This document shows positions 9,601 through 64,000 of a DNA stretch of 64,000 nucleotides, in pieces. The stretch comes from a virus (Duplodnaviria > Heunggongvirae > Uroviricota > Caudoviricetes). Position numbers and translations under genes: made by a program. The notes beneath the pieces were generated by a model that saw nothing but the letters and a program-made list of their open reading frames with translations, searched no databases and was not told the DNA's origin. The stretch is from IMG/VR virus record IMGVR_UViG_3300001605_000009. One strand, 5' to 3'. How positions within the stretch are numbered: the stretch's first letter is position 1; each line of letters opens with the position of its first letter.

Positions 9601-9792
9601 TTACTTGGCATCTACACACTCCACATAACTTGTTTGTCCGTCATTCCAGTGCCTAATGACACCAGCTACAATAACAGCGTTGGTAATTAAATACGCCGCT
9701 AATATAGCAGTACGAATATAGGCTACAACATCTGATTCTTTGTTGCACTCAGTAGCCTTATCACCGAGTGCCTTACACCATAAACGCCACAT
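9601..9792 (-). CDS. hypothetical small membrane protein
   Basis: The ORF contains a hydrophobic segment. Confidence 0.3.
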   Translation of the reverse strand: MWRLWCKALGDKATECNKESDVVAYIRTAILAAYLITNAVIVAGVIRHWNDGQTSYVECVDAK

Positions 9793-17600: not shown

Positions 17601-18600
17601 ACGTGGTAGTTCTAGTCGAACCTACGGTAAACGCATCCTGAAGTGTCCATACACCTGTACCATTAAAGTTAATGGGAAAATCTAATAATTTACCATTGGT
17701 TGTAATTGTTCTACTGACATTTGCAAAAAATGTCCAGGCTCTTGTACCCGCAGTCAGTATCATAGTAGGGGATAATATTAAATTTCCATATATGCTTATA
17801 GCAATATTACTTACAGTACCGCTAAATCCAGTAAAGTTTAAATTGTTCACGCGATTGTCTGCGGTGAAAGTAACAATATCTGTTCCGGCAGTAAAGTTAA
17901 AACTTAATTCAGTAGCATTCGCTCCCGCATTTATAGTTCTTGTCCCAGTAGATCCAGAATAAGTGCAGTTAATTGTCGGTGTTCCAGAAACTTTTAATCC
18001 AGTTTGAGTAGCTGCATCAAAAATAGTTGTACCAGAGCCAGTAAGCGTTAAGTCTCCAGTACCAAAGTTAAATGTTCTCGTAGTAGATCCGGAGATATTG
18101 GCTGTTAACGCGGTAAATTTATTAGTGCCTATCGATAGAGTACCCACCGTAAGGGTAAGTGTACTGCTCGTAGAAAATGCCCCGTTTAGGGTAACTGTAA
18201 TAGAGTTGCCATTTACTACTACAGGACTACTAATTATTGAAGTACCAGTATTACATATAGCAGTGGTACCATTGAAGGATAGTGAGCCTGTGTTTGTCCA
18301 ATTAATAGTTCCAGAAATAGTAAGTCCAGAAGTAGTCACAGATATATTACTTGATCCATTAAAAGTCAAAGTGCCTGCTGATGGGTTTGCCATATTAATA
18401 CCAAGAACTGATGTAGTAGCAGTTCTTGTTACTGTGTAGGATGCTCCAGACCCTGCAACATTAGACTCAGAGTCAAAAATGGCAACATCGGCAGTAGTTG
18501 GAACGGCAGCACCTCCAGTTCCTCCAGATGTAAGTGACCAATTAGTTGTGTTCGTAGCATCCCAGGTACCTGTGCCGCCTACCCAATATTTATTAGCCAT
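11626..18600 (-). CDS. giant repetitive Ser/Thr/Gly/Asn-rich structural protein (2324 residues), likely a tail fibre or adhesin with beta-helix-like modules
   Basis: A single ORF of 2324 residues. The module KTVYWNxxGxxxWSxxGWAxxxGGTPxxxNFPLxQDT occurs four times and the module NL(D/V)FTGF(S/A)G(T/A)W at least five times. Composition is low-complexity beta-rich. The gene lies next to small fibre-like genes. Confidence 0.8.
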   Translation of the reverse strand: MANKYWVGGTGTWDATNTTNWSLTSGGTGGAAVPTTADVAIFDSESNVAGSGASYTVTRTATTSVLGINMANPSAGTLTFNGSSNISVTTSGLTISGTINWTNTGSLSFNGTTAICNTGTSIISSPVVVNGNSITVTLNGAFSTSSTLTLTVGTLSIGTNKFTALTANISGSTTRTFNFGTGDLTLTGSGTTIFDAATQTGLKVSGTPTINCTYSGSTGTRTINAGANATELSFNFTAGTDIVTFTADNRVNNLNFTGFSGTVSNIAISIYGNLILSPTMILTAGTRAWTFFANVSRTITTNGKLLDFPINFNGTGVWTLQDAFTVGSTRTTTLNSGTLNLNNFTLTTGLFVSTGLSARTLNFGTSGIVSLSGTGTVFNTTSSIAISGFPTVNLTNSSATARTITTGALSEASVNVTAGTGNVSTSTSTFKNLDFTGFSGAWIPTAGTIYGNLTLGTGQTVAAYTSLTFAATSTGKTITSNGVTLNGPATFDGVGGGWTLQDALNIGTNQITVTKGSFDTGNYNVTAGSISSSNSNIRSITLGTSTVTLNGQSPITFNSTELTFSGISSTINCTHTAAIVNFLPDGQSFGTVNFTANTFGYSIGSSVNSPSPTITFINLNIPARDSVGVTPTYLGGDVVITSTLTVSSTELLNRTLLQSNQTGSPRVITAASTDLSNVDFRYITGSGTATWSGTSLGDAGGNSLITFAAPKTVYWNRPGVSNWSSPGWALTSGGTPDAANFPLVQDTCIVDDNSAGSTLTLDQNWYIGTYDTTARSTLFTLSYGTTTTYWCGSNNNMMGVSAGIGCTLNYIGVNKIQLVGYQPTNITNIDAYNSTIKVNVTNTGMGSLTLTNGTLDLNEYSLSLNSFSSSNSNTRSIMFGSTGYLKLEGTGTIWNTATVTNLTTSGLRRVDVTAVTSLTRTISAGVWSEDYAFSFNITAGTGPVTFTANNRIKNLDFTGFAGSWTNVALGIYGSLTVSTGMTVAAGTNTVSFLSTYTGNTINPNGKTLGFPIVFNGLFGRWTLTGQLSTGTTSTSTIRLAAGYLDLNGNNHSCPAFITNSNSARTLAFNYGSLTLNGTGTVWDATNVYNMTVTGTPIVNVTNATATARTIIAGSPSESNSVSFNITAGTSSTTVTGNVRNLVFTGFAGTWPNSAITIYGNLTLSTGMTVTAGAGVRTFASTSAGKIITSSGKALGCPITFNGIGGEWTLADAINLSTYTLTLTNGSFSTSNFNVTAGSVSSSNSNTRSLTLGSSTITLSSGGWDITVPTGLTLSSGTSTINLSAASQSFNGGEQTYYNVSFTSGGSAESVVNSIRGSNVFNNLTIAGRTVTGVNYLQFNANQTINGTLNIGAGTGPAYRTWLLSQVFDTQITLTVAAISSLVDVDFRDIVVAGTSGNWSGTRLGDCGNNSNITFESSKTVYWNLTGTVNWSANGWATSSGGTPAVNNFPLAQDTAIFDNTGAATTVTFDGLYNTGTINMSARTTVMTLAFGSSTQFVYSDFILGTGVTPTTLTGQLAFLGYTKTQTLNTAGKSFPIAIASYSPSTTVLLGGAFTSTNAINLVGNLDTSNYSVSATTINASEYATINLNGSTVTLSATGTAWQALSTNTINAGTSTIVLTSTTPTFTGGDKTYYNVTFNNTAINTANITGVNTFNNLNIAGRTGSVGISQVIFGGGNQTVNGTLTIGAGTSAIYRTFLQSNTQGTARTITANAISALTDVDFRDITAAGAAGTWTGIRLGDCGNNTNITTSTPKTVYWNLLGNSLWTATAWATTAAGTPAVANFPLAQDTATFTNTGVASTLTINANWNIGTLNYSSRTTASTLAIGTTSPDIYGNVTLYSGLTITGTGVVTFNKSGATQTITSAGVTWPTGINVYNTNSGTTKLGSALTCSGTVSIYTGTLDLNGFTATVSSLQPAVSASIYDFPAIAFGSSAINITGNNGTILYMEVSGGNFNYTGIPTVNLTYSGSTGTRTIFAPGMTETTCFDINITAGSDIISFSTGGVPSIRNYNDTGFTGTYNMASKVNIYGNMTNNSAVLTGFVNFLATSGTKTLTINTTSNACGAFLTFNCPGAIYQLGSAINLAYYSYGATLNTTGGMILKAGTFNANGYDVTVPEFSSSYTSSRALIMGSGNWTIVPYNLTYLQYLIDVSAYSALIPIFGWDISDPTNLTLDKGTANIICTTYSIPVEYQFYGGDQTYNNFTVTPSSTTLQRSTLSIYGNNTFDTMSNTVKPTTIKFEGGSTQTFSSFNISGDSSSLVTITSTNTTPAILKKSTAWNVGANSTNGGNNTGLSFTGTSPNYLSISYITGSIIGAIKKLGAFLAFF

Positions 18601-25003: not shown

Positions 25004-25397
25004 GGTACTTTTCCTTATTATCAGAAGAGAAATAAATACGCTCTTCTTCTTCAGAGAGAGGTCTACTCATTGGAGTATTCTTCTCGTCCCTCCAACACAG
25101 ATGGTTGGTATTCTCAAAAGGTATAAGCCAAGGTGTCATTAATTTCTCCGTGTAAGTGCGGCGGGTTCTGTTTCTAGGTTCCGCCAGACCCAAGAAGAAT
25201 CAAGCTACTAGAGCTAGACCTTCAAATGCTGAGTTATCGTTAGCATTTACTTTTTGTGGCTCTTTGCCAGTCAATAGTCTCGGCGTTCCCTATTACACGA
25301 AAATCGATCCCTGGTCGCCCCCATCATAGAATATCGGACTGTGTAGGTACCAATACACGAGACACTGATAAACGGTCAGGCTCTTCCCAATATTCTA

Positions 25398-25425
25398 TGG
25401 TGGAGGCGGCGGGAATTGAACCCGC
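25398..25425 (-). ncRNA. tRNA/tmRNA 3'-end-like element (T-arm, acceptor 3' strand and CCA) with no matching 5' half
   Basis: The minus strand reads GACGCGGG-TTCAATT-CCCGCCGCCTCCACCA. This matches the 3' end of bacterial tmRNA and tRNA closely. No complementary GGAGGCG was found within plausible distance. Confidence 0.4.
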
Positions 25426-25454
25426 GTCTTTTCGTCTTTATTGTCGGCTGTCAG

Positions 25455-25497
25455 CGACTATATACTCGTTATAACAAAAGTTACAACAAAAGTCAAG
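25455..25497 (-). promoter_or_regulatory. sigma70 promoter (TTGACT, 17-nt spacer, TATAAC) firing into the tRNA/tmRNA-like fragment
   Basis: The minus strand reads aaaaatatttcTTGACTtttgttgtaacttttgtTATAAC, about 45 nt upstream of the fragment. Confidence 0.5.
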
Positions 25498-25732
25498 AAA
25501 TATTTTTCAAGCGTTCGGCCTTAGCACGAAGATGCTCAGCTGGGGACATTCCGTAGTCCTGATGGTTAACAGAAATATTCGCTAGTACAAATCCAAGGTC
25601 TTTTCGCTCCTGATAGAACTGCTCACGCATCTTTCGCTTACGCTCTAGCTTCTGCTCACGAGTTTCTAGATTTGGGAAGTTGACTTGTCCGTTGGACTTT
25701 TGCTTCTGTACGACCTGTTCTGCTTCCTGCAC
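25493..25732 (-). CDS. hypothetical basic protein
   Basis: ORF with the promoter at 25830-25870 upstream. Confidence 0.4.
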   Translation of the reverse strand: MQEAEQVVQKQKSNGQVNFPNLETREQKLERKRKMREQFYQERKDLGFVLANISVNHQDYGMSPAEHLRAKAERLKNIS

Positions 25733-55461: not shown

Positions 55462-55500
55462 TTTTATATTGCAAAAGCGTTGCAAAGTCAGAGGAAATCA

Positions 55501-55818
55501 ATGGAAGAAAAACTAGACAAAATTATATCACTACTAGAGGAGTTAGTTTATAACTCTAAACACTATAACGGATATGTTAAATGGTCCTACGAACAGGAAG
55601 AATTTCTAGATATTATGTTTACAGCAGGGCACGATGTTCCAGAATTAATAAAGCTCATTAAAGAAAAATTTGGTATTGATAGATCAGCCGGGGCCATATG
55701 CTCTAGACTAAGTAAGCTTGGACTAAATAAGCCTATTGAAAAGAAACGAGTCATTGAAAAGAAAGAGTCTACTACTATAGAAGATATTTTTGACCTACTA
55801 CCGTGGGAAGTAGAATGA
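55501..55818 (+). CDS. helix-turn-helix protein (plus-strand member of the paralog family)
   Basis: The ATG at 55501 has a ribosome-binding site upstream. Motif IKEKFGIDRSAGAICSRLSKLGL. Confidence 0.5.
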   Translation: MEEKLDKIISLLEELVYNSKHYNGYVKWSYEQEEFLDIMFTAGHDVPELIKLIKEKFGIDRSAGAICSRLSKLGLNKPIEKKRVIEKKESTTIEDIFDLLPWEVE

Positions 55819-56324
55819 GCGTAGATAATATTAGAAACAATCCGCGATGGACCGCAGAAGAAGAAGAGAAACTGTGTAGGGCTGTATCCGCTTACTCGGA
55901 TTGGGACGAAGTCCCATACGCTAGTATTCAGGACAAATACTTCCCACACCGATCTGTGTCAGCTCTGCAAGCTAAGTATCTTCGTACTAAAGATAAATAT
56001 TCCTTCTATCAGTGGAGTGATAACGCATCTAAAAATGTGTTCAGAATGTACCTGGATGGGGCCTCCATCGGTCAAATTCACACTAAGATGATAGAAGTGG
56101 GACTAACTGGAGCGAGCCCACGAGATATTGAGCTAGAGATAGAAAGGCTTCGAGGGATTCTCTCTAGTAAGGTTAGGACTTATGCCGAAGAGCATGGACT
56201 TAGGCCAACTAAGAGATATTCGCTGGAACAGCTCCAAGCTTTCGCCAAATTCAAAGCTCCCGAGGGCAACTCCTTCGCAGCTAAAGCCGCTATTGCAGCG
56301 CTTCATGAGATTATTAATGGCTAG
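55803..56324 (+). CDS. Myb/SANT-like helix-turn-helix repeat protein
   Basis: WTAEEEEKL and a helix-turn-helix motif of the paralog-family type. Confidence 0.45.
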   Translation: MGSRMSVDNIRNNPRWTAEEEEKLCRAVSAYSDWDEVPYASIQDKYFPHRSVSALQAKYLRTKDKYSFYQWSDNASKNVFRMYLDGASIGQIHTKMIEVGLTGASPRDIELEIERLRGILSSKVRTYAEEHGLRPTKRYSLEQLQAFAKFKAPEGNSFAAKAAIAALHEIING

Positions 56325-56637
56325 AGGCTGGACACCACAAGAGGATGAATTACTACTTAGACTTCGAGACGAAGGTCTCACAGCTAGGGAGATTGCTCTT
56401 AGACTAGAGCGCAGTGCTGGAGCAATCAGAATGAGAGCTTCACTACTAGCTGAGGACAAGCAGAAACGCTGGACTGAAGCTGATAAGCAGCTAGTATTTC
56501 AACTTAAATCTGAAGGACATACTAACAAGTTTATTGCTATAAAACTGGGCAGAACAGCATCTTCAATTAGTACGTTTGTCTCTCGCAACTGGCATGTTGA
56601 ACAGGCTTCAACCGATGCTAGGAAAAATAATTCTTGA
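56317..56637 (+). CDS. Myb/SANT-like helix-turn-helix repeat protein (start set to the ATG at 56317)
   Basis: Motifs WTPQEDELLLRL, IALRLERSAGAIRMRASLL and IAIKLGRTASSISTFVSRNW. Confidence 0.45.
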   Translation: MARGWTPQEDELLLRLRDEGLTAREIALRLERSAGAIRMRASLLAEDKQKRWTEADKQLVFQLKSEGHTNKFIAIKLGRTASSISTFVSRNWHVEQASTDARKNNS

Positions 56638-56663
56638 CATTTGATATCGCATATGGTATCATA
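56622..56663 (+). promoter_or_regulatory. sigma70 promoter (TTGACA, 17-nt spacer, TATCAT) firing into a 500-bp ORF-free region
   Basis: aaaaataattcTTGACAtttgatatcgcatatggTATCAT. It overlaps the stop of the preceding gene. Confidence 0.5.
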
Positions 56664-57112
56664 CAAACTATGTTAAGTTAGATTGCTTTATATTTACTTT
56701 TATTCTGTTATTGACCTGATCGCGACGGTCCGAGCGTCTCGGATCCGTCGCGTATTCAGGGAGACTCAATACAGACTTTATATCGTGTCTAACTTGTTTT
56801 GCTACAGCCCTTAACGGGCTGGAATTGCGTTTAAAATCCGCTACAAAAATTATGGCTATTTTAAGCTCTTTCTACAAGGCTGTATCGGCTTTTTGATAAC
56901 TTTCTCTTCATTCATCATAAACTTGATCCAACCTAACTCTAGCCGCTCGCTTTAGCCTCGATTCAGCCTGCTGTAGCTCGTTAAAATGTCGTTAGTTGCG
57001 CACGAAGTGCGCTGGATTTAGCTTCAGGCACCAGCTCAACCAAAATAATTTTTTGGCGCTTTTGCTTGGGTGCCAACACAAAAAAGGCCGTACCAAACTG
57101 GCACAGCCTCAT

Positions 57113-57154
57113 AAAAACCGAAAAAAGCGGGTCTAACTTTCGTTAGGCCCGCTT
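57113..57154 (-). terminator. rho-independent terminator (bidirectional, stronger on the minus strand)
   Basis: AAGCGGGTCTAAC-TTTCG-TTAGGCCCGCTT with a T6 tract on the minus strand. Confidence 0.65.
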
Positions 57155-57161
57155 AAGTTGT

Positions 57162-57380: not shown

Positions 57381-57575
57381 TGCTTATCTCCGTTGCTTGA
57401 AACTCATTCTAGCCGTTTTAGTGCGCGAAGTCAACATGAAAAAAATAGTTCTTGACACCAGTTTGCACCTGGTTGGCGAACGAAGTTCGCAAGCTTGGTA
57501 AAAATAGTTCTTGACACAAGCATGGCCTAAAATAGATGTTGACTTCGCACTAGCCGGCGCAGGATTTTTGGCGCT

Positions 57576-58278: not shown

Positions 58279-58310
58279 CTTATAACCGGAAAGCGGTCGG
58301 CGGTCAACAT
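58279..58310 (-). promoter_or_regulatory. sigma70 promoter (TTGACC, 17-nt spacer, TATAAG) carrying the conserved box CTCTTGATGTACTCTTATA
   Basis: The box recurs upstream (on the minus strand) of the genes at 59215..59940 and 60752..61075. Confidence 0.5.
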
Positions 58311-58339
58311 AAACTTTTAGCAGTGCTGGTCGGCTTTGG

Positions 58340-58380
58340 TTATTTTTTAACTTGACTTTGCATTGATTTGCCACTATAAT
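58340..58380 (+). promoter_or_regulatory. consensus sigma70 promoter (TTGACT, 17-nt spacer, TATAAT) firing into a 470-bp ORF-free segment
   Basis: ttaacTTGACTttgcattgatttgccacTATAATtttggcgctgcgcgcc. Confidence 0.6.
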
Positions 58381-58716
58381 TTTGGCGCTGCGCGCCTTAC
58401 CAGACCTTCTTCGAGGTCATTTTCAGCACACGTAAAAATTGAACTTGCACTAGGTCGTCGCGGCGCTAAGGGGCTCGTTATAAGTTGCTCCCGCACTCTT
58501 CCTAGCAGGTAACTTTCGCACTAGCATTGCTTTCGCACTGGCGCAGGAACGCTGTTCTCGTTTTGTTCTCGGTTTGTTCCATGTGATGATATATCGTTAC
58601 GCTCATTTAACATAACATGCTTTCCCTGATTTAAGCTGCCTAAGTCATTGATATTACTAGATAAAACCGTTTAACATAATGCATTTTATCAAACCCATAT
58701 TTATTTTTCCTAGCTC

Positions 58717-58745
58717 TTGACAAATGTGTTGAAACCTGTTAAAAT
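58717..58745 (+). promoter_or_regulatory. island plus-strand promoter cassette (TTGACA, 17-nt spacer, TAAAAT, then CGGCGC), copy 1
   Basis: cTTGACAaatgtgttgaaacctgtTAAAATcggcgc. A TG dinucleotide at -15/-14 gives an extended -10 element. Confidence 0.6.
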
Positions 58746-58932
58746 CGGCGCTAGGCCATTTTCGGCGCTGTCACATCCATTATAGCAGGTTTTAATGGGC
58801 TTGTCAATAGGAAAAATCGCCTGTGGATAAATATATTCTAGCGCGGCCTGACCGAACAAAACGGGAACAAAAATTTCGGCGCATTCAGCGCGCTATTTTC
58901 AGTATAGCATATGCCAAAAATGCTGTCAAGCG

Positions 58933-58973
58933 AAAAAAATGCTCCAGAACCAGTCTGGAGCATTTTCTTTTTC
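58933..58973 (-). terminator. bidirectional rho-independent terminator
   Basis: ATGCTCCAGA-ACCAGT-CTGGAGCAT flanked by an A6 tract and a T tract. Confidence 0.75.
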
Positions 58974-59175
58974 AGTCCTTCACTTCAACGTCGATAGTAA
59001 AGGATAGTTCGACTTCTTTATATAACTTGACGTTATAAACACTTACGCCATTTTTTACTTCCTCTTTAATGTCGTCTAGTATGTCTGCTAGTGACTCACT
59101 ATAGTAACTGCCAGTCACACCGCCAGTAATGCCCAAGATTTCAGCATAAAACATAATACTTAATCCTTTTTCCAA
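58972..59175 (-). CDS. hypothetical small protein
   Basis: ORF followed by a terminator. Confidence 0.4.
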   Translation of the reverse strand: MEKGLSIMFYAEILGITGGVTGSYYSESLADILDDIKEEVKNGVSVYNVKLYKEVELSFTIDVEVKD

Positions 59176-59214
59176 AGTTGGGGCAAGTAATCATTACTTG
59201 CCCCGTTTCTGTTT

Positions 59215-59940
59215 TTACTTGACCGTGAAGTGATCCCGAACGGCGAAGTCACGATAGTTGTATGGCGGCGGATTCATATAGTCAGACGGTGAAGTATTTT
59301 TGACTAATGCCGTAAGAATAGGCACCTCGTAATACTTGGCGTCTTCTAGTGCCGTATGTGGTTCGTCTGGCAATCCCGCGCCTAGCAGAAATTTTGCCAT
59401 AACATCGGCATTAGTTTGCACGCCCATATGCCCTGTTTTACTTGTGCGATTGCCGAAATAGTGATTCTGCAAAGCAAAGTTAAGAAAAGCGCGAGTATTG
59501 CCCCACTTAGCAGCGGCAGCGTGCCACAAACAAAATTGACTAGGGAACAAATCATTGGCAATAATGCCAGACTTGTTCATCTTATCACGGTCGAAAGCCA
59601 AGTTATAGGCTGTCATAACAGGCGAGTACTTAGCGGCAATCTTGCTAAGTACGCGATTAACAGCACCAACGCTTGCCAATACTCGCGTTCCGTCTTGTAG
59701 CATTTGCTCATAAGCGGCGTAGCGCGCGGGCAGGCTTTCCTTGCTGAAAACATCGCCCTTATCCCCGAAAACATGAAACAGAGGGTGCGCCTCTTTATCG
59801 CTGAAAAAGTCGCCAATTAGAATGCCCATCTCATAATGGATGTTTCCTTGCTTGTCGGAAACAACGATGCCCATATCCGCGACCATATTGGTTTGCGTTG
59901 TTTCCGTGTCAATTGTCAAGAAAAACTTTTTCTTACCCAT
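59215..59940 (-). CDS. DEDDh 3'-5' exonuclease (DnaQ/RNase T-like)
   Basis: Exo I FLTIDTETT, Exo II YNLAFDRD and Exo III HTALEDA motifs. Confidence 0.75.
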   Translation of the reverse strand: MGKKKFFLTIDTETTQTNMVADMGIVVSDKQGNIHYEMGILIGDFFSDKEAHPLFHVFGDKGDVFSKESLPARYAAYEQMLQDGTRVLASVGAVNRVLSKIAAKYSPVMTAYNLAFDRDKMNKSGIIANDLFPSQFCLWHAAAAKWGNTRAFLNFALQNHYFGNRTSKTGHMGVQTNADVMAKFLLGAGLPDEPHTALEDAKYYEVPILTALVKNTSPSDYMNPPPYNYRDFAVRDHFTVK

Positions 59941-59998
59941 TTTTCGTTCCTTTGCCCTTTGGGTCTTTCAGGAGAGCCTTGCGCCCTCTTGATGCTCT

Positions 59999-60045
59999 CT
60001 TATACCTAGCGAATCGTTGCCCGTCAAGAAAAACTTTTCCACAAT
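59999..60045 (-). promoter_or_regulatory. sigma70 promoter (TTGACG, 17-nt spacer, TATAAG) with an upstream DnaA-box-like TTTTCCACA
   Basis: The minus strand reads TGTGGAAAAgtttttcTTGACGggcaacgattcgctaggTATAAG. Confidence 0.55.
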
Positions 60046-60061
60046 TTATTTATTTTTGCTC

Positions 60062-60090
60062 TTGACAGATTGATTGGACCCTGTTAAAAT
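60062..60090 (+). promoter_or_regulatory. island plus-strand promoter cassette, copy 2
   Basis: cTTGACAgattgattggaccctgtTAAAATcggcgcc, with a terminator hairpin starting about 10 nt downstream. Confidence 0.6.
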
Positions 60091-60098
60091 CGGCGCCA

Positions 60099-60131
60099 AT
60101 AAACCCTTGAAAAACAAGGGTTTATTTTGTT
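60099..60131 (+). terminator. rho-independent terminator
   Basis: AAACCCTTG-AAAAA-CAAGGGTTT followed by ATTTTGTT. Confidence 0.65.
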
Positions 60132-60136
60132 GGCTG

Positions 60137-60538
60137 CTATACTATCGGAAACACAAGTATTGCAAGCAATATAGAATTGAGAGCAAAGCCAATGCCATTA
60201 GAGACAATATAGAGCATATCCTTTTGATATACTGCTCGCCACAAGTAAAGCGCCAAGCCAACCCAAGTCAAGAGTACCATTGATAGTGGTGGCATAGTGG
60301 TGTTATATCCGGCAATTTTTCCGACCATAGTGGGAACAGTATTGCTATGCAGCATAACCATTGCAAGCCAGCCAGCAATTTCAGGGGCTGGCATATTGCG
60401 AATTTTTTGAAAAAACATTGACTTTTCCTTTTTCTTGGGAAAATTCCCATAAGCCGCGTCATGCAAACAAGCCGCCACTAGATCATTGCCTAGTGCCCGT
60501 TCCCGCTTGCTTGCCGCTAGAAGTTCGTTTTTCGTCAT
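60137..60538 (-). CDS. membrane protein with C-terminal transmembrane helices
   Basis: A 133-residue ORF with a hydrophobic C-terminal half. Confidence 0.45.
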   Translation of the reverse strand: MTKNELLAASKRERALGNDLVAACLHDAAYGNFPKKKEKSMFFQKIRNMPAPEIAGWLAMVMLHSNTVPTMVGKIAGYNTTMPPLSMVLLTWVGLALYLWRAVYQKDMLYIVSNGIGFALNSILLAILVFPIV

Positions 60539-60607
60539 GCCCTCTTATGGACTAGGCCAGCCGACCCGTCAAGAAAAACTTTTCCACAAATAAAAATAAA
60601 TAAGCTA

Positions 60608-60636
60608 TTGACAAACCCTAGCGCGTCTGCTAAAAT
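60608..60636 (+). promoter_or_regulatory. island plus-strand promoter cassette, copy 3
   Basis: aTTGACAaaccctagcgcgtctgcTAAAATcggcgcc. Confidence 0.55.
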
Positions 60637-60704
60637 CGGCGCCTCCAGCCGGATTTTTTGGCGCTAATACAATTATAACAGAATCAAAAGGCTTTGTCAA
60701 GCCC

Positions 60705-60742
60705 AAAAAACAAATAAAAAAAGTGGGGGATTTCTCCCCCAC
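60705..60742 (-). terminator. rho-independent terminator (minus strand only)
   Basis: GTGGGGGA-TTTC-TCCCCCAC followed on the minus strand by TTTTTTTATTTGTTTTTT. Confidence 0.75.
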
Positions 60743-60751
60743 CCTATTGAC

Positions 60752-61075
60752 TTATGCGGAAAGCCGTTCCCGAAGGATTTGCAAGGCCAGCTTAGGGGCC
60801 TTTTCCAGTCCGTCCATATTTTTCTGGACAAGTGCCGCAATGTCTGCAACAATGTCTTCCTTGGTTTCGACTGGGCCGCCAGTCTTGCTGGTCTTTTCCT
60901 TAGCCTTATAAATGCCCATGCGAGTTGCCTTAGCGCGAATTGAGCGAACGTCCTTGCCGAGCTTTTCGGCCAATTCGATTGCCTTATCATTGTCAATGAT
61001 GCCAGCGGCCAAGAGAACAGCCTCTTGTTCAGCCGAGTAGTTCTTGACGGTTTCGGTTTTTGCAGTAGCAGCCAT
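60752..61075 (-). CDS. helix-turn-helix paralog family member
   Basis: LAEKLGKDVRSIRAKATRMGIYKAKEKTSKTGG is co-linear with the ORF at 57769..58080. Confidence 0.55.
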   Translation of the reverse strand: MAATAKTETVKNYSAEQEAVLLAAGIIDNDKAIELAEKLGKDVRSIRAKATRMGIYKAKEKTSKTGGPVETKEDIVADIAALVQKNMDGLEKAPKLALQILRERLSA

Positions 61076-61208
61076 GAGAAAATTTCCTTTTTATCTCGAA
61101 GGGCCTATCCCCTCTTGATGTACTCTTATACCGCGCGTTTGCATGTCTGGCAAGAGAAAAATGCACGAAAGCCGAAAAAACTTTTCCACAGTACATTTAT
61201 TTTTGCTC

Positions 61209-61237
61209 TTGACAGGCTCTAGGAAACCTGCTAAAAT
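61209..61237 (+). promoter_or_regulatory. island plus-strand promoter cassette, copy 4
   Basis: cTTGACAggctctaggaaacctgcTAAAATttggcgcc. Confidence 0.55.
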
Positions 61238-61287
61238 TTGGCGCCAATAGGCCTTCAGAAATCTTTTCGCTTGACACGTTTTTTCGC

Positions 61288-61316
61288 TTGACACGGCTGG
61301 CGTTCCGTCCTATAGT
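61288..61316 (+). promoter_or_regulatory. additional plus-strand promoter (TTGACA, 17-nt spacer, TATAGT) inside a tandem 17-bp duplication
   Basis: The sequence cgcTTGACAcg occurs twice. The second copy is followed by a 17-nt spacer and TATAGT, and about 70 nt further on by a terminator. Confidence 0.5.
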
Positions 61317-61354
61317 GAGAGTAGCGGGCAAAATTTTCGGCGCCTTTGGCACAT

Positions 61355-61390
61355 TTAAAAGGTGGGAACAAGTCCCACCTTTTACTTAAT
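61355..61390 (-). terminator. bidirectional rho-independent terminator
   Basis: AAAAGGTGGGAACAAGTCCCACCTTTT. Confidence 0.7.
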
Positions 61391-61598
61391 GTGCTCTGTA
61401 ATCAAGTATAGATTGCAATTCGATTATTTCCCGCAATGTCCTTTGTTTCTCCATGTTTGCAGTATAAAGATCAACAATGATTGACGAAATCAGATCCTCT
61501 TGTAGTGCTAGTTTGTCCTCTGCACAGTCAAGCTGCAATTCTAGTGGTTCCTCGTTCATGCCGCTAACTTTCCGTTTTGCTTTACAGCGTTGAAACAA
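61386..61598 (-). CDS. hypothetical small protein
   Basis: ORF with a terminator at its end. Confidence 0.4.
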   Translation of the reverse strand: MFQRCKAKRKVSGMNEEPLELQLDCAEDKLALQEDLISSIIVDLYTANMEKQRTLREIIELQSILDYRAH

Positions 61599-62029
61599 GT
61601 AATACCGATTGAAAGCATTGCGTCAATTACTTTCAAGTTATCGTCAAACATAATTGCGCAAGCATCCTTTGCACAAGAAAAGCCTTCGCCCGCAAAGTAT
61701 GCTTCTAGCAGATCAACTTTCAATTGCGCGTCCCCGCGCATATCGTTAACGCCGCGCGACAAGAAAACATCATGTTCTAGTCCATGCTTTTCAAGGAACA
61801 AATGGTTGCTTTCATGTGGCGAACGCGCCGTGCAAATGATAACCGTATGGCCAGCCTTTTTAATCTGTTTCATGCTTTTTGCAAGTGGCAAAAGCGAGTC
61901 ACCCATAATTTTCTCATGGGTATTATTCTCCAGCCAGTGCGCAAGATTAAGCGAGCCATCGGGCAACGTGTTTTGACGGTGGCTTGAGTCGATAACCGTG
62001 CCATCCAAGTCGAAAATTACATAAGCCAT
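61556..62029 (-). CDS. HAD-superfamily 5'-nucleotidase (deoxyribonucleoside 5'-monophosphatase-like, comparable to T5 dmp)
   Basis: HAD motif I FDLDGTV at the N-terminus. The gene is small and located in a pre-early-like island. Confidence 0.65.
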   Translation of the reverse strand: MAYVIFDLDGTVIDSSHRQNTLPDGSLNLAHWLENNTHEKIMGDSLLPLAKSMKQIKKAGHTVIICTARSPHESNHLFLEKHGLEHDVFLSRGVNDMRGDAQLKVDLLEAYFAGEGFSCAKDACAIMFDDNLKVIDAMLSIGITCFNAVKQNGKLAA

Positions 62030-62122
62030 TTTGCTAGTCCTTGCTGTCTTGATGCCCCATTATTGCCAGAAAAGCGGCATAGCGTCAAGAAGTTTTTATC
62101 CACAATTAAAAATAATTTGCTA

Positions 62123-62151
62123 TTGACAACCTATAAAAATCCTGCTAAAAT
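62123..62151 (+). promoter_or_regulatory. island plus-strand promoter cassette, copy 5, with a perfect DnaA box 20 nt upstream
   Basis: aTTGACAacctataaaaatcctgcTAAAATcggcgct. TTATCCACA is at 62096-62104. Confidence 0.55.
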
Positions 62152-62160
62152 CGGCGCTAA

Positions 62161-62197
62161 TTAAGCCTTTGAAAACAAAGGCTTAATTGCTTGTTTA
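62161..62197 (+). terminator. rho-independent terminator
   Basis: TTAAGCCTTTG-AAAAC-AAAGGCTTAA followed by TTGCTTGTTT. Confidence 0.6.
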
Positions 62198-62635
62198 ATC
62201 TATGGGGCAAGAGGACTGGCAGCTCTTGCTTGCCCACCAAACCGTTTCCGGTCTTGACAGCCGATTAAAAGTGCGAATGTCAAGTAAAATTGGCTCTCCC
62301 GAATGTTCGCTAGTCGCCAGCTTTTCCACCTTGTCAAGCCAGCGATTAGAGTATTCTGCGTCAGCTAATATGTATTCAATTGGGCAGCCGTCAAACATAT
62401 CGTATTTGAATGTTTTAGAGAATGCAATAACGCTAGAGCGATCAAAAGAAAAGCGCGCCTTTGGTGGGTTTACTAGCCCAAACCAACGCCTAGTGCTAGA
62501 ACGCTTTTCTTCTGATTTGACCCAGCTATTGACTTGTTTGTCAGTTTCTACAGTGACTTGATGCACAATTTCAAGGCGGCAATCCTCTACCATTGCCAGA
62601 AGTGAAGCCTTAGTGACTGGAACAAAACCCTTCAT
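62195..62635 (-). CDS. hypothetical protein
   Basis: ORF only. Confidence 0.4.
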   Translation of the reverse strand: MKGFVPVTKASLLAMVEDCRLEIVHQVTVETDKQVNSWVKSEEKRSSTRRWFGLVNPPKARFSFDRSSVIAFSKTFKYDMFDGCPIEYILADAEYSNRWLDKVEKLATSEHSGEPILLDIRTFNRLSRPETVWWASKSCQSSCPID

Positions 62636-62835
62636 GCATAATTCCTTTGAATAAAGCGATCACCAAAACGATCAAGAGCGAGAATCTGCCAATCATCACT
62701 TTCATAGTCGATATCTATATCGTAGTCAAGCGGTTCTGCAACAAAAAACAGATCACAATCCCATGCTTCCGTGCTAGCATTATCTGCTAAGTGCCAGTCA
62801 AGAGGTTCGTTCATTGCTTCATTCCTTGTTTCCAT
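62632..62835 (-). CDS. small acidic protein
   Basis: A 67-residue Asp/Glu-rich ORF containing DYDIDIDYESDDW. Confidence 0.4.
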   Translation of the reverse strand: METRNEAMNEPLDWHLADNASTEAWDCDLFFVAEPLDYDIDIDYESDDWQILALDRFGDRFIQRNYA

Positions 62836-62882
62836 GAATCCACCTTAGACAATAAAAAACGCCTGTCAAGAAATCTTTTCTC

Positions 62883-62910
62883 TTGACAAAATAAAATAAC
62901 CTGCTAAAAT
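62883..62910 (+). promoter_or_regulatory. island plus-strand promoter cassette, copy 6 (16-nt spacer)
   Basis: cTTGACAaaataaaataacctgcTAAAATcggcgc. Confidence 0.5.
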
Positions 62911-62975
62911 CGGCGCATCTGAGCCAAAAAATTCGGCGCTACTACCATTATAGCATGAAGCTAAATTGTTGTCAA

Positions 62976-63009
62976 ATAAAAAATAAGGCCTGAAGGCCTT
63001 ATTTTTTAG
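62976..63009 (-). terminator. bidirectional rho-independent terminator
   Basis: AATAAGGCC-TGAA-GGCCTTATT flanked by an A6 tract and a T6 tract. Confidence 0.7.
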
Positions 63010-63194
63010 TTCTCCACAACTCTAGCGGCCTTATATTGGGCCGCTTTCATGAAACGCTTAGCCTTATCCAAGGCGTCGCGGGCCTCGCCAGCAGTGTCAA
63101 AATATTGTGCCCGTTCGATCCTTCCAGCAAAGGTCCATACCGTGCCGCGCAGGTAGCAGATGCCTTGTGGTGTGGTCAGTTGAACAGTGAACAT
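63006..63194 (-). CDS. hypothetical small protein
   Basis: ORF only. Confidence 0.35.
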   Translation of the reverse strand: MFTVQLTTPQGICYLRGTVWTFAGRIERAQYFDTAGEARDALDKAKRFMKAAQYKAARVVEN

Positions 63195-63282
63195 TGCTTA
63201 TCTCCTTGCTGATGAATTAACCCTAGGCCATAGCAGTCCCAATGTCTAGCAGTATTTATCCACAAGCAAATTTTATTTGCTC

Positions 63283-63310
63283 TTGACAAACTATAGAAAA
63301 CCTGTCAAAA
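63283..63310 (+). promoter_or_regulatory. island plus-strand promoter cassette, copy 7 (-10 hexamer CAAAAT), with a perfect DnaA box at 63256-63264
   Basis: cTTGACAaactatagaaaacctgtCAAAATcggcgcc, with a hairpin immediately downstream. Confidence 0.45.
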
Positions 63311-63347
63311 TCGGCGCCAATGGGAGGCTTTGCAGCCTCCCATTTTG

Positions 63348-63551
63348 TCAACCATAATTCTGCCAATTCACAATATCGGCCAATGCTTGTTCTGCCGTTG
63401 GCTTTTCATCATAATGCTTGACAAAATCCTCGTCAGTGCCTTCAAAGATTAGATGGTTTCTTCGAGGCAACCAAAAGGCGGCTTGATCCTTTTCGCCACC
63501 ATACCAAGAAACCATTAGATCATTGTGCACCCATTCAGCAGTTGTTTTCAT
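63348..63551 (-). CDS. hypothetical small protein
   Basis: ORF only. Confidence 0.35.
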   Translation of the reverse strand: MKTTAEWVHNDLMVSWYGGEKDQAAFWLPRRNHLIFEGTDEDFVKHYDEKPTAEQALADIVNWQNYG

Positions 63552-63754
63552 CGGCTAGACTCCAATCCAAAGGCTTCGAGGCCTTCATCACCATATTCGC
63601 TTTCTACCGCTTCTGCAAGCATTTCTTCTGGAGTATAGTCGGCTTCCCAGAAATCATAGTAATTCTGGTCAGGCCAGCAATCCGTTGGCATTCCCACGGT
63701 TTCGATCATAAGAGCGTCAACCCGTGCCATCCAAGTCTTGAAAGAAACTGCCAT
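63548..63754 (-). CDS. small acidic protein
   Basis: A 68-residue acidic ORF overlapping the downstream gene by 4 nt. Confidence 0.4.
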   Translation of the reverse strand: MAVSFKTWMARVDALMIETVGMPTDCWPDQNYYDFWEADYTPEEMLAEAVESEYGDEGLEAFGLESSR

Positions 63755-63832
63755 TTGTTATCTCCTCGTTACAAGAACAACCTAGGCCCTAGCTTATCCC
63801 TAGTCAATCCCTAAAATAAAAAACTTTTGCTA

Positions 63833-63861
63833 TTGACAGGTTGAATTGAACCTGCTAAAAT
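63833..63861 (+). promoter_or_regulatory. island plus-strand promoter cassette, copy 8
   Basis: aTTGACAggttgaattgaacctgcTAAAATtggcgcc followed by the hairpin TAGGGCTTTGG-TTTC-CCAAAGCCCTA. Confidence 0.55.
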
Positions 63862-63900
63862 TGGCGCCAATAGGGCTTTGGTTTCCCAAAGCCCTATGTG

Positions 63901-64000
63901 TCAAGGGATTATTTCAAAAGATTCGCCATGATCGTGAAAATATTCTTCTCCACCCATTTCATAGAAGTATTCTTCTATCGTCTCTTTATCAGTAAGGCTA
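63901..64000 (-). CDS. hypothetical acidic protein, C-terminal part only (gene starts beyond the right edge of the window)
   Basis: In-frame minus-strand ORF ending ...EEYFYEMGGEEYFHDHGESFEIIP with its stop at 63901. Confidence 0.35.
   Translation of the reverse strand, partial: SLTDKETIEEYFYEMGGEEYFHDHGESFEIIP

Follow-up and report, generated by a model that had tools for sequence, protein, structure and literature searches.

An uncultivated relative of phage T5 carries, within a block of small early-type genes (the island), an iterated promoter-like element that is directed against the genes of this block, is enriched far beyond chance and is conserved under selection, with its anatomy and orientation evident from the sequence. 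As this layout is also kept in relatives, it probably acts on the island genes as a built-in brake or insulator. Our leading reading, which we hold tentatively, is that the elements are genuine promoters for the host primary-sigma RNA polymerase, and that opposing transcription from them would insulate or damp the island genes.

The DNA analysed is a single stretch of 64 kb (the window). Eight copies of the element and one variant lie at 58.35-63.87 kb, all on the plus strand, and none occurs elsewhere in the window; the -35 hexamers of the eight copies start at 58717, 60062, 60608, 61209, 62123, 62883, 63283 and 63833. The general form is TTGACA-17(16) bp-TGn-TAAAAT-YGGCGC. In a scan of the window allowing up to 3 mismatches, the strict pattern TTGACA-N17-TAAAAT-NGGCGC was observed 6 times against 0.12 expected, and all 6 matches fell on the plus strand and inside the island. 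An earlier sequence-only reading had described such copies as strong sigma70-type promoters with an extended -10, antisense to the island genes and present in nearly every gap. This description holds: every copy opposes the minus-strand genes, TG precedes the -10 in 8/8 copies, every sequence feature of the predicted promoter type is there, and 7 of the 8 gaps at 58.97-64.0 kb contain a copy (the exception is the gap 59176-59214), with the eighth copy inside a 660-bp non-coding stretch (58311-58971). The CGGCGCC reported after the -10 stands only as its GGCGC core, the full heptamer being found in 3/8 copies and the rest having CGGCGCT (two copies), CGGCGCA, TGGCGCC or TTGGCGCC. Every plus-strand match scoring 11/12 or better in the range 58.3-64 kb has GGCGC directly after the -10 or at most 3 nt away, except the one at 61288, where it is 23 nt downstream. 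Strength had also been deduced from the GC-rich discriminator, a step that finds no support, as such discriminators usually shorten the life of the open complex in E. coli; we prefer to see GGCGC as the signature of a promoter class. The elements are:

58717-58751, plus strand: antisense promoter copy 1, TTGACA-17-TGT-TAAAAT-CGGCGC; its face-to-face module has orthologues in the relatives L003, L007, L014 and L018
60062-60096, plus strand: copy 2, followed by CAAT and a stem-loop
60608-60642, plus strand: copy 3
61209-61244, plus strand: copy 4, variant TAAAAT-TTGGCGCC
61288-61316, plus strand: second promoter downstream of copy 4, TTGACA-17-TATAGT, preceding a bidirectional stem-loop
62123-62157, plus strand: copy 5, upstream of the gap of the dmp-like gene, followed by a stem-loop
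62883-62916, plus strand: copy 6, with a 16-bp spacer
63283-63317, plus strand: copy 7, with CAAAAT as -10, followed by a stem-loop
63833-63867, plus strand: copy 8, TAAAAT-TGGCGCC, followed by a stem-loop
58352-58388, plus strand: variant of the class, TTGACT-17-TATAAT-TTTGGCGC, in the long non-coding stretch

The variant has homologues in two relatives (L003 and L007), and tandem arrays of such a type occur in related contigs.

The genes opposed by these elements form transcription units of one to three genes each, and hence do not each possess their own promoter and terminator, as had been supposed. The elements are combined with predicted sense promoters in two kinds of cassette. In five gaps the element and the weaker sense promoter of the following gene stand back-to-back, with some 30 bp and a DnaA-box-like site separating their -35 hexamers; these sense promoters have a near-consensus -35 and a weak -10 (TATAAG, TAGGTT, TAGAAG), and are followed by a ribosome-binding site and then an ATG. 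The same arrangement and spacing are found in L016, L017 and L018. In three gaps the element stands face-to-face with a consensus sense promoter heading a transcription unit, the predicted start sites being about 20 bp apart, and these modules are conserved in L003, L007, L014, L018 and L141. The sites on the sense side are:

62975-62947, minus strand: 12/12 consensus sense promoter, TTGACA-17-TGc-TATAAT, heading a transcription unit; predicted start on AGCGCCGAA, about 20 bp from that of copy 6, which it faces
60700-60672, minus strand: 12/12 consensus sense promoter facing copy 3; predicted start on AGCGCCAAA
58807-58779, minus strand: 12/12 consensus sense promoter facing copy 1; module conserved in L003, L007, L014 and L141
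60027-59999, minus strand: gene-proximal sense promoter, TTGACG-17-TATAAG, back-to-back with copy 2
63807-63779, 63248-63220, 62869-62842, 62088-62059, 61153-61125, 60572-60544 and 58307-58279, minus strand: equivalent gene-proximal sites
60035-60043, plus strand: DnaA-box-like TTWTCCACA between two back-to-back -35 hexamers
60580-60588, 61182-61190, 62096-62104 and 63256-63264, plus strand: further TTWTCCACA sites

TTWTCCACA occurs 8 times in the window against 1.37 expected, with 5/8 at one shared cassette position, and is conserved in L017, L021 and L141. The back-to-back sense promoters, the TTWTCCACA sites between promoters, the face-to-face consensus promoters and the direction of all elements toward the terminase block were absent from the sequence-only reading.

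In 4/5 back-to-back gaps the element abuts the closing stem-loop of the preceding gene; in the fifth (61209) the second plus-strand promoter intervenes, and the stem-loop follows about 110 nt on. The stem-loops are:

60098-60126: 3' end of gene 60137-60538, beginning at about +1 of copy 2, -14.5 kcal/mol, z -5.1; T-run on the plus strand, ATTGGCGCC next on the gene strand
62156-62190: 3' end of gene 62195-62635, adjoining copy 5, -18.5 kcal/mol, z -5.9
63319-63344: 3' end of gene 63348-63551, adjoining copy 7, -18.6 kcal/mol, z -4.6
63870-63897: 3' end of the gene leaving the window, adjoining copy 8, -19.8 kcal/mol, z -6.1
61356-61384: bidirectional terminator-like, after gene 61386-61598, -17.5 kcal/mol, z -5.1; T-runs on both strands

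Thus 4/8 copies (60062, 62123, 63283 and 63833) enter a stable stem-loop directly (-14.5 to -19.8 kcal/mol, z -4.6 to -6.1); from 61209 and 61288 the first hairpin reached is 61356-61384, and copies 58717, 60608 and 62883 meet one only after about 90-150 nt. Firing into a terminator is not supported as a general rule: the latter three copies face a promoter, and in relatives the T-run past the stem-loop on the promoter strand is usually absent (mean 2.7 T in 8 nt). Within the window such T-runs are good after 60098-60126 and 63319-63344, and weaker after 62156-62190 and 63870-63897. A further correction to the earlier reading is that the stem-loops adjoining elements are poor in U on the gene strand (mean 0.8 U in 8 nt), so that sense termination there would need help. 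In the relatives' set, 78 of 181 non-redundant copies have a hairpin of -10 kcal/mol or stabler starting within 16 nt, mostly 0-5 nt, and in the IMG/VR copies the stop codon of the convergent gene recurs 30-42 nt past GGCG.

The pattern is present in at least 120 IMG/VR stretches, many of which have multiple copies on one strand, and the element recurs with its orientation and neighbours across many uncultivated T5-like contigs; its absence from related genomes, named beforehand as an outcome that would speak against it, is thus not what we find. It was not found in cultured phages, and 596 Gb of bacterial genomes gave only 16 single matches, which is chance level; the element class is specific to one phage clade. 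The pair of copy 2 and its hairpin has a near-identical counterpart in L014/L141. Within 5.5 kb the copies have some 35 bp of similar sequence in common, which could suggest chance matches or functionless leftovers of recent local duplication, the latter also raised in the sequence-only reading. However, in addition to the excess of strict matches, only TTGACA, CTG, AAAAT and GGCGC are invariant among the eight copies, while the spacers are unrelated. The same holds between orthologous gaps: in a three-phage alignment of the copy 5 gap the -35, TG, -10, GGCGC and the sense -35 are invariant and the spacer changes, the stem showing a compensatory T-A to C-G change. Since the spacers differ where the promoter-determining positions and GGCGC do not, the copies do not appear to be recent duplicates. 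Orientation and neighbours are, moreover, kept in phages with protein identities of no more than about 69%, and the element in many more distant contigs, making this explanation extremely improbable.

Under the favoured reading, the promoter class would comprise an A/T-rich upstream tract, TTGACA, 17 bp, TGn, TAAAAT, and YGGCGC at the start site. Given the predicted initiation, start sites and RNA ends, polymerase departing from an element would make only short RNA, either some 30 nt folded into a hairpin or a product of 90-150 nt. We infer that these promoters fire from such positions and that their opposing transcription could act in up to three ways: 1) by head-on collision of polymerases at the stem-loop; 2) by mutual exclusion of polymerases at the face-to-face pairs; 3) through the short antisense RNA. 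The common start-site motif might further allow the phage to switch the entire promoter set together. Against damping stands 'sitting duck' interference, in which a polymerase waiting at a promoter is usually displaced by an elongating one, so that a promoter is not necessarily a good roadblock; nor does damping explain the shared orientation toward the late-gene block. Collision at a stem-loop has a precedent in E. coli, where head-on RNA polymerase collision terminates convergent transcription (bioRxiv 10.1101/2022.10.23.513370).

Several other roles were weighed against opposing transcription. The most serious, though unlikely, is that the conserved core is primarily a protein site, with promoter strength secondary: either an operator for a phage DNA-binding protein or a site for a T5-type nicking endonuclease. 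The scattered TTTYGGCGC-like motifs noted earlier are real and strand-specific, WWWYGGCGC occurring 17 times on the plus strand (16/17 within 57.0-63.9 kb) and 5 times on the minus strand. Those without a same-strand promoter are:

60656-60664, plus strand: A/T-run + YGGCGC
57051, 57566, 58760, 58874, 61335 and 62931, plus strand: other such copies

Three of these seven (58760, 60656 and 62931) coincide with the predicted starts of the three consensus sense promoters, as at AGCGCCGAA, and in relatives the offset of GGCGC from the -10 varies by 1-3 nt. The promoterless copies and the variable offset suggest that the motif has its own meaning beyond promoter strength, and its overlap with the antisense -10/start and the consensus sense start means that both promoter sets could be switched by a single protein. 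Judged from the bacterial genome scan, the motif does not belong to host promoters. The sequence AAAATCGGCGCC may be a putative operator for island DNA-binding proteins, candidates being the island's two 61%-identical A2/D5-like paralogues, which match the PHROGs 'transcriptional regulator, D5-like' and 'DNA binding protein'. For nicking, the same genome encodes PF26848 Phage_T5_Nicking_endo, and GGCGC is 2.4-fold under-represented on the early-block plus strand (7 vs 16.9 +/- 4.0) while GCGCC is not; this depletion is nevertheless modest (reached in 2/200 shuffles) and absent from the 6.6-kb late block. The T5 nick consensus is given as NPu/GCGCN (record note) or R/GCGCRGG (PMC3517423), and the promoter-linked copies, GGCGC(C/T)A, misfit the latter, only 57556 and 58540 conforming; T5 nicks are also spread unclustered over the genome, and the second T5 nick has no preceding A/T run. 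The -35, the TG and the exact 17-bp spacing vary no more than GGCGC does, which only promoter function explains.

Somewhat less probable still is that the cassettes are mainly recombination linkers, 20-40 bp conserved blocks between unrelated small genes that let these be gained, lost and swapped as self-sufficient modules, the antisense promoter being a mere part. The PeSL cassettes of T4-type phages are likewise iterated strong sigma70-like promoters that have a stem-loop and an A/T-rich tract upstream and lie where small ORFans abound (PMC2839356), and gene content does change at cassette boundaries: in L141 one more small gene separates the 60062-type cassette from the membrane-protein gene, while the 70-aa gene 61386-61598 is missing, and gene order between the same cassettes differs in L017. 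Yet linkers need identity rather than a spaced promoter, and here the spacer is free while hexamers, TG and spacing are fixed; unbroken identical stretches are short (about 12-20 bp), and the antisense orientation and face-to-face modules are left unexplained. This role is in any case compatible with opposing transcription rather than a true alternative. We consider it improbable to a further degree that the strong antisense promoter boosts the weak one at its back, divergent transcription providing local negative supercoiling or polymerase recruitment on injected linear DNA without supercoiling. The recurrent geometry and the poor -10 of the would-be beneficiaries favour this, and leu-500 and ilvY-ilvC are established cases of divergent promoters coupled by transcription-induced supercoiling; but little torsional stress comes from a transcript of 30 nt, the effect is impossible in the three face-to-face modules, and a weak -10 (TAnAAG/TAGAAG) may be normal for an alphaproteobacterial sigma (Caulobacter, rhizobial consensus). 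Equally doubtful is a target of plus-strand transcription beyond the island. All elements are directed toward the lysis, terminase and portal block, an orientation toward the late genes that holds in each relative examined, and by analogy with T5 they would point to the first-entering genome end; they could prime or boost late-block transcription from an internal copy of the terminal repeat, or have their effect at the DNA end itself, in entry, end protection or the function of a packaging site. In the source contig, L141, L110, L034 and L043 all GGCGC-class promoters lie upstream of the terminase block and share its orientation, L110 and L034 have tandem arrays along the far side of an island that contains few gaps, and T5 offers a possible parallel (below). 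Against this, half of the promoters run directly into stable hairpins, two with good promoter-strand T-runs, the island's last 3 kb before the late block contain no GGCGC-class promoter, the late block has its own (TTGACC-17-TATAAT), and genome ends and terminal repeat are assumed for the source phage from T5.

Opposing transcription thus remains our preferred, if tentative, reading, and it may be set beside T5 itself. As proposed earlier, the island resembles the T5 pre-early region: it encodes a homologue of T5 dmp (E 3e-15; the gene also matches PF26880) and the two D5/A2-like paralogues, and it adjoins the small and large terminase genes. This HAD/dmp gene has Pfam matches, and other island genes have homologues in related contigs. 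The host is probably an alphaproteobacterium, for which start-site distances and terminators may not follow the E. coli rules exactly. T5 offers a precedent in promoter classes that are told apart chiefly by their discriminator, a contact on which T5 gp026 acts (PMC7472727). The T5 terminal repeat itself has no such promoter architecture. T5 does possess a strong unannotated minus-strand promoter-like site (10879-10851) that would fire into the non-coding injection-stop region.

On the strand opposite to the small, early-type genes of the island at about 57–64 kb lies an iterated element with the make-up of a strong promoter. Its −35 hexamer is TTGACA in all eight copies (TTGACT in one further variant) and is invariant in orthologues, the spacer measures 17 bp in seven copies and 16 bp in one, the −10 hexamer is TAAAAT in seven and CAAAAT in one, with YGGCGC after it, and a TG stands one base 5' of the −10 in all eight. 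The genes flanking the elements lie on the minus strand, as judged from Pfam matches and homologues in other contigs. Two layouts can be distinguished: back-to-back cassettes, where the element is accompanied by a weaker sense promoter, and face-to-face cassettes, where it opposes a consensus sense promoter. The elements, named by the start of the −35 hexamer, are:

58352 (+): variant copy, TTGACT as −35
58717 (+): antisense promoter, face-to-face, paired with the sense promoter 58807
60062 (+): antisense promoter, back-to-back
60608 (+): antisense promoter, face-to-face, paired with the sense promoter 60700
61209 (+): antisense promoter, back-to-back
62123 (+): antisense promoter, back-to-back
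62883 (+): antisense promoter, face-to-face, paired with the sense promoter 62975
63283 (+): antisense promoter, back-to-back
63833 (+): antisense promoter, back-to-back

A strict form of the pattern has six matches against 0.12 expected, all six of them in the island and on the plus strand, and the first 54 kb of the window are free of plus-strand promoter matches scoring 11/12 or better. The sequence-only reading had placed an antisense element in nearly every gap of the island, and one is indeed present in seven of the eight gaps from 58.97 to 64 kb. The copies agree fully with one another only in TTGACA, CTG, AAAAT and GGCGC; the spacer varies in its first 10–12 bases. When the gap upstream of the dmp-like gene is aligned with its counterparts in two other phages, the antisense −35, TG, −10 and GGCGC are again invariant, as are the −35 of the sense promoter and a TTWTCCNCA block; the spacer has been replaced, and the stem of the adjoining hairpin has undergone a paired T-A to C-G change. 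The unrelated spacers and this promoter-shaped footprint in orthologous gaps rule out recent cassette duplication, which had been offered as one source of the conservation. Because selection has acted on precisely the bases that a primary-sigma promoter requires, the elements are likely to be real promoters of this type.

Pattern scans of IMG/VR recovered at least 120 stretches with the element, many with two to six copies on the same strand. In these relatives TAAAAT and TATAAT alternate as the −10; about half of the 168 unique instances have a G at the relevant positions before the −10, and the upstream tract is A-rich at −9 to −5 before the −35. Wherever the neighbours could be judged, the stop codon of the convergent gene recurs 30–42 nt past the GGCG, and a stable hairpin begins no more than 16 nt away, mostly at 0–5 nt, in 78 of 181 non-redundant copies. 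Several of the pattern-bearing contigs have the same type of terminase and portal nearby and therefore form one broad T5-like clade. The element is absent from the cultured phages searched, and bacterial and archaeal genomes (596 Gb) yielded 16 single matches, which is the chance level; hence, the search of phage genomes that had been proposed as a check identifies the element as a signature of this phage clade. The same 16 matches rule out a host-type promoter, such as an rRNA-like one, copied by the phage. Every promoter of the GGCGC class points toward the terminase block, both in the source contig and in the related contigs L141, L110, L034 and L043, an orientation that the damping proposal set out below does not account for. 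A small plus-strand protein was rejected as the product of the elements: downstream reading frames, including leaderless ones, are not conserved, and an ATG coincides with the predicted start in only one copy in the window (63320) and one in the related contig L017. Apart from a weak, chance-level match to Rfam rli42 (E 0.04) at 56634–57160, no known RNA family was found in 54–64 kb at E ≤ 1.

The window is part of a longer contig (ENA ERZ27315062 k141_509581, 106,419 nt; exact protein match), and nearly all of its genes are on the minus strand, including those for a family-A DNA polymerase, a primase and a DnaB-type helicase. It also carries a permuted tmRNA, about 16 tRNA genes, a short NAD-ligase fragment, RNA ligases and NAMPT. 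The DNA polymerase shares 44% identity with its counterparts in T5 and related phages, and searches of cultured phages with megablast, blastn and a 72-nt cassette consensus gave no DNA-level homologue. The island continues for about 3 kb beyond the window, to about 67.1 kb in the extended coordinates of k141_509581, where it adjoins the small and large terminase genes and meets the late block head to head. The genes of this block are:

T5-type small terminase
lysin
large terminase
T5-type nicking endonuclease (PF26848)
portal
prohead protease

A homologue of T5 dmp lies at 61562–62020 (34% identity, E 2.6e-15, tblastn with T5 dmp; Pfam PF26880, Phage_T5_dNMPase), and two small island proteins of 103 and 107 aa, 61% identical to each other, resemble DNA-binding proteins of the D5/A2 type. 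This makes the guess of a pre-early-type region a reasonable one, as judged from an assembled contig. T5 A2 itself has weak similarity only (E 0.003) to 8942–9136 and to the 107-aa paralogue; A1 has no match within the window, which covers the island as far as 64 kb, and no homologue of T5 gp026, the RNA-polymerase-binding protein, was found in the window.

Several further features of the genome deserve mention. The tmRNA, at 25157–25500 (−), is of the permuted two-piece, alphaproteobacterial type (RF01849, 79.7 bits; RF04321, 90.8 bits; tag peptide ANDNSAFEGLALVA by ARAGORN), and suggests an alphaproteobacterial host; this matters for interpreting −10 hexamers such as TAGAAG and TATAAG. The sole plus-strand genes of the window, three overlapping ones at 55480–56637, run towards the island; their products, with helix-turn-helix repeats of the Myb-like and sigma70-region-4-like kinds, are candidates for transcription regulators. 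A 500-bp non-coding convergence zone (56634–57160) has a plus-strand promoter-like TTGACA-17-TATCAT with TG (56634–56662) where the Myb/HTH gene stops; a long inverted repeat, rich in GC, comes next at about 56717–56752, and then terminators on both strands at 57084–57154; an unannotated RNA from this zone is possible. The variant promoter 58352 would transcribe about 170 nt of non-coding DNA with TTYGCACT repeats (58388–58562, +), a segment with homologues in two related contigs (L007, L014), up to a weak terminator-like hairpin at 58539–58554. One open reading frame of 2324 aa fills 11626–18600 (−) between two tRNA clusters. The late block opens with TTGACC-17-TATAAT (6520–6600 of L160, from the same contig as the window, in window orientation; about 67.1 kb extended), and the ATG of the small terminase stands six bases past the TATAAT, so its mRNA is predicted to be nearly leaderless.

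The back-to-back cassettes have a constant order along the genes: 1) the stop codon, a stem-loop and two to four bases; 2) GGCGCCG-ATTTTA...TGTCAA, which is the antisense promoter in reverse; 3) about 30 bp of A/T-rich DNA with TTWTCCACA; 4) the sense promoter, a ribosome-binding site and the ATG. Their sense promoters combine a good −35 with a weak −10 (TTGACG-17-TATAAG, TAGACA-17-TAGGGT and similar), and at copy 61209 a second plus-strand promoter (61288–61316) precedes the stem-loop, which lies about 110 nt downstream. TTWTCCACA fits the DnaA-box 9-mer TTWTNCACA and is a putative DnaA site; there are eight such sites in the window against 1.37 expected, five of them at one fixed position of the cassette. 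Candidate binding sequences in the cassettes, relevant to the operator and DnaA questions, are AAAATCGGCGCC and TTATCCACA. Two related contigs (L016, L111) have a 16-bp perfect palindrome, ATTACAAATTTGTAAT, in the A/T-rich tract about 10 bp upstream of the antisense −35, roughly at the place of TTWTCCACA; lineages may therefore put different factor sites between the two promoters.

The stem-loops adjoining the elements are stable (−14.5 to −19.8 kcal/mol, z −4.6 to −6.1). They have the GC-containing hairpin of an intrinsic terminator and lack its U-tract on the gene strand, where the sequence that follows is (A)TTGGCGCCG; a gene-strand U-tract is found only at the separate terminators 60745–60720, 63003–62981, 58966–58936 and 61384–61356. 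On the promoter strand, five or six of the ten nucleotides after the stem-loops 60098–60126, 61356–61384, 62156–62190 and 63319–63344 are T (only three after 63870–63897), and the antisense RNA is thus predicted to be a hairpin of about 30 nt. The earlier claim that the promoters point into a terminator accordingly holds in the window by virtue of these T-runs. It does not extend to the clade as a conserved rule, since the eight nucleotides after the hairpin contain on average 0.8 U on the gene strand and 2.7 on the promoter strand (78 cases). What is conserved, as far as predicted starts and folds go, is the position of a stem-loop, which coincides exactly with the start site of the antisense promoter and closes the convergent gene. 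A different arrangement is seen in the related contigs L026, L030, L040, L048, L053, L067, L094, L115 and L125, where a promoter of the GGCGC class is followed by a Fur-box-like palindrome, AATGAGAATCATTCTCATT, rather than by a random hairpin. No such palindrome occurs in the window; T5 (L023, ~9690–9725) has two similar ones just downstream of its major nick, in the injection-stop region.

In the face-to-face cassettes a canonical U-tract terminator closes the previous unit and is followed by a sense promoter that matches the consensus at 12 of 12 positions. The −10 hexamers of the three pairs are 33–36 bp apart, which puts the predicted start sites about 20 bp apart, and that of the sense promoter falls on AGCGCC(G/A)AA, the reverse of a second TTTYGGCGCT motif. 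The module is kept base-for-base at functional positions in five related contigs (L003, L007, L014, L018, L141). All three pairs thus present facing promoters with overlapping footprints or transcripts, and activity of one might lower the output of the other. The island therefore reads as three or four putative transcription units, each with a consensus promoter at its head and an antisense promoter immediately facing it; more antisense promoters lie at internal junctions. At 62862–62890 (−) the antisense and sense −35 hexamers together make up an inverted repeat, TTTGTCAAGAGAAAAGATTTCTTGACAGG, after which the gene strand reads CGTTTTTTAT; the leader of the 62835 unit may thus contain an attenuator. 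A repeat of this type was not seen in the other gaps.

From this organization we tentatively infer that transcription initiating at the elements would insulate and damp the island genes, a proposal to which we give somewhat less than even weight. It is the best-supported role of the elements, because no protein is made, the RNAs would be short and copy-specific, and the geometry opposes sense transcription at unit heads and gene ends. In the face-to-face pairs, overlapping footprints would keep polymerase from occupying both promoters at once, and at gene ends a head-on partner at the stem-loop could block read-through where the U-tract is missing; programmed head-on collisions of this kind have been demonstrated at convergent E. 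coli genes (bioRxiv 10.1101/2022.10.23.513370). The shared start-site motif could allow the whole promoter set to be raised or lowered together. In T5 it is chiefly the discriminator that sets the promoter classes apart, and the contact made there is modulated by a phage protein (PMC7472727).

The motif also behaves independently of the promoter, which favours a protein that reads an A/T-run plus YGGCGC, either an operator protein or the T5-type nickase of the same genome. Its plus-strand copies outnumber the minus-strand ones (17 versus 5), and 16 of the 17 lie in 57.0–63.9 kb; seven copies have no same-strand promoter, the distance from the −10 varies by 1–3 nt in relatives, and the consensus sense promoters have the same GGCGC core at their predicted start sites. 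For the nickase speaks the presence of a Phage_T5_Nicking_endo gene (PF26848) on the same contig, and T5-like nicking of its own DNA is probable for this phage; the gene, at 2200–2610 (−) of L160, stands between those for terminase and portal, about 8 kb past the end of the window. GCGC is part of the T5 nick consensus (NPu/GCGCN; R/GCGCRGG, PMC3517423), and two plus-strand sites in the neighbouring non-coding DNA, which fit R/GCGCRGG, resemble the nick context of the T5 terminal repeat (TTTGCACAAAA/GCGCAGGG, L023 9748):

57545–57564 (+): T5-nick-like site, TTCGCACTAGCCGGCGCAGG
58529–58548 (+): T5-nick-like site, TTCGCACTGGCGCAGG

This region may be the counterpart of the injection-stop and nick region of T5; relatives have TTTGCACT..GGCGC repeats in the same non-coding region. 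Plus-strand GGCGC is also rarer than expected in 1–56600 (7 versus 16.9 ± 4.0 in dinucleotide shuffles, 2 of 200 as low), with its reverse complement GCGCC at the expected level (22 versus 21.7). However, this depletion is modest, and no GGCGC bias is seen in the 6.6-kb late block. YG/GCGC matches the short nick consensus trivially, and the extended form is found only at 57556 and 58540, not at the promoter-linked copies. The second T5 nick is without an A/T run, which excludes the run from the T5 consensus; like the misfit of the promoter-linked copies and the modest depletion, this speaks against the nick reading.

A bolder version, in which nickase breaks at GGCGC in packaged DNA, between −10 and +1 on the non-template strand, would pre-open the promoters for immediate loading of host polymerase, strikes us as very improbable. 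The breaks would act on the first-entering DNA, which is linear and not supercoiled; if true, this would show what the single-strand interruptions of T5-like phages, long a puzzle, are for. Another rival holds that local supercoiling activates the weak partner promoter, and yet another that the cassettes are recombination linkers like the promoter-early stem-loop (PeSL) cassettes of T4-type phages; single-gene differences at cassette boundaries (window versus L141 versus L017) are few, as are the genomes. An RNA-polymerase 'winch' that pulls DNA in was set aside, as the promoters would face already-entered DNA if, by analogy with T5, the terminase side enters first.

Insulation and damping by opposing transcription, if real, would have wider implications. 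Phage early regions are usually read as plain strings of promoter, gene and terminator, and here a clade of uncultivated T5 relatives keeps a strong wrong-way promoter in nearly every gap, with selection falling on exactly the promoter-making bases. Should these promoters fire, dedicated non-coding promoters would serve as insulators, terminators or timers in the form of a repeated standard part, and one start-site motif marking them all could switch the set jointly. This would bear on how T5 pre-early genes are limited and shut off, and would offer compact parts for synthetic gene insulation. The GGCGC motif, together with the nearby T5-like nick context and the nickase gene, provides a testable handle on the purpose of the nicks. 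The feature is robust, conserved and odd in orientation; its role and host are predicted from sequence.

Comparison with T5 reveals a similar neighbourhood: a dmp homologue, A2/D5-like paralogues, the adjacent terminase block, a non-coding repeat region with T5-nick-like context, DnaA-box-like sites (T5: Davison, bioRxiv 10.1101/866236) and a promoter class marked by the sequence from −10 to the start (T5: PMC7472727). In contrast to T5, no A1 homologue lies within the window, the orientation of dmp with respect to the terminase block is reversed, and the discriminator is GGCGC rather than the ATATT of the T5 early class; a terminal repeat and two-step DNA transfer would apply to this phage by analogy. 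The T5 left terminal repeat has no iterated antisense promoters: its 43 promoter-like sites compare with 32.5 expected, and none is paired with a gene-end hairpin. In the literature we found neither a description of iterated antisense promoters in T5-like phages nor transcript maps of the T5 family with antisense starts.

Ju et al., in 2019, reportedly described collision-driven bidirectional termination at convergent E. coli genes. Our island shares with that system (Wang et al., bioRxiv 10.1101/2022.10.23.513370) a stem-loop between opposing units and poor gene-strand U-tracts, so that head-on collision rather than a U-tract would prevent read-through. In E. coli, however, the opposing polymerase comes from a real convergent gene, whereas in the island its source would be a dedicated, non-coding promoter whose start lies at the foot of the stem-loop. 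Sense polymerase would therefore collide with a complex that is still initiating or has just escaped.

Coliphage 186 pR/pL, IS10 pIN/pOUT and the lambda oop RNA are systems of convergent promoters or short antisense RNA that act by interference. Like them, the island has facing promoters with a short overlap, where the stronger or regulated one would limit the other, and a predicted short antisense RNA near a gene end. They are single switches, whereas the present arrangement recurs at the heads of three units and at five junctions within units; the predicted overlap at the face-to-face pairs is only about 20 nt, and the antisense RNA predicted for the internal junctions would extend over no more than the 3' stem-loop.

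The closest described system is the PeSL cassette (Arbiol et al. 2010, PMC2839356; Comeau et al. 2014, PMC4122927). Both are iterated intergenic cassettes among small, variable early genes, and both join a stable stem-loop to a strong sigma70-like promoter with an A/T-rich tract upstream; as with PeSLs, the few differences in gene content seen between the window and its relatives lie at cassette boundaries. The PeSL promoter drives the downstream gene, in the order stop, A/T tract, −35, −10, SD and ATG (PMC2839356), whereas our elements oppose both flanking genes, which departs from the orientation that defines the PeSL, and a second, weaker promoter serves the downstream gene. The cassettes of this T5-like siphovirus further differ from those of the T4-like myoviruses in a stem-loop fixed at the start site, an additional GGCGC start-site motif and a DnaA-box-like site.
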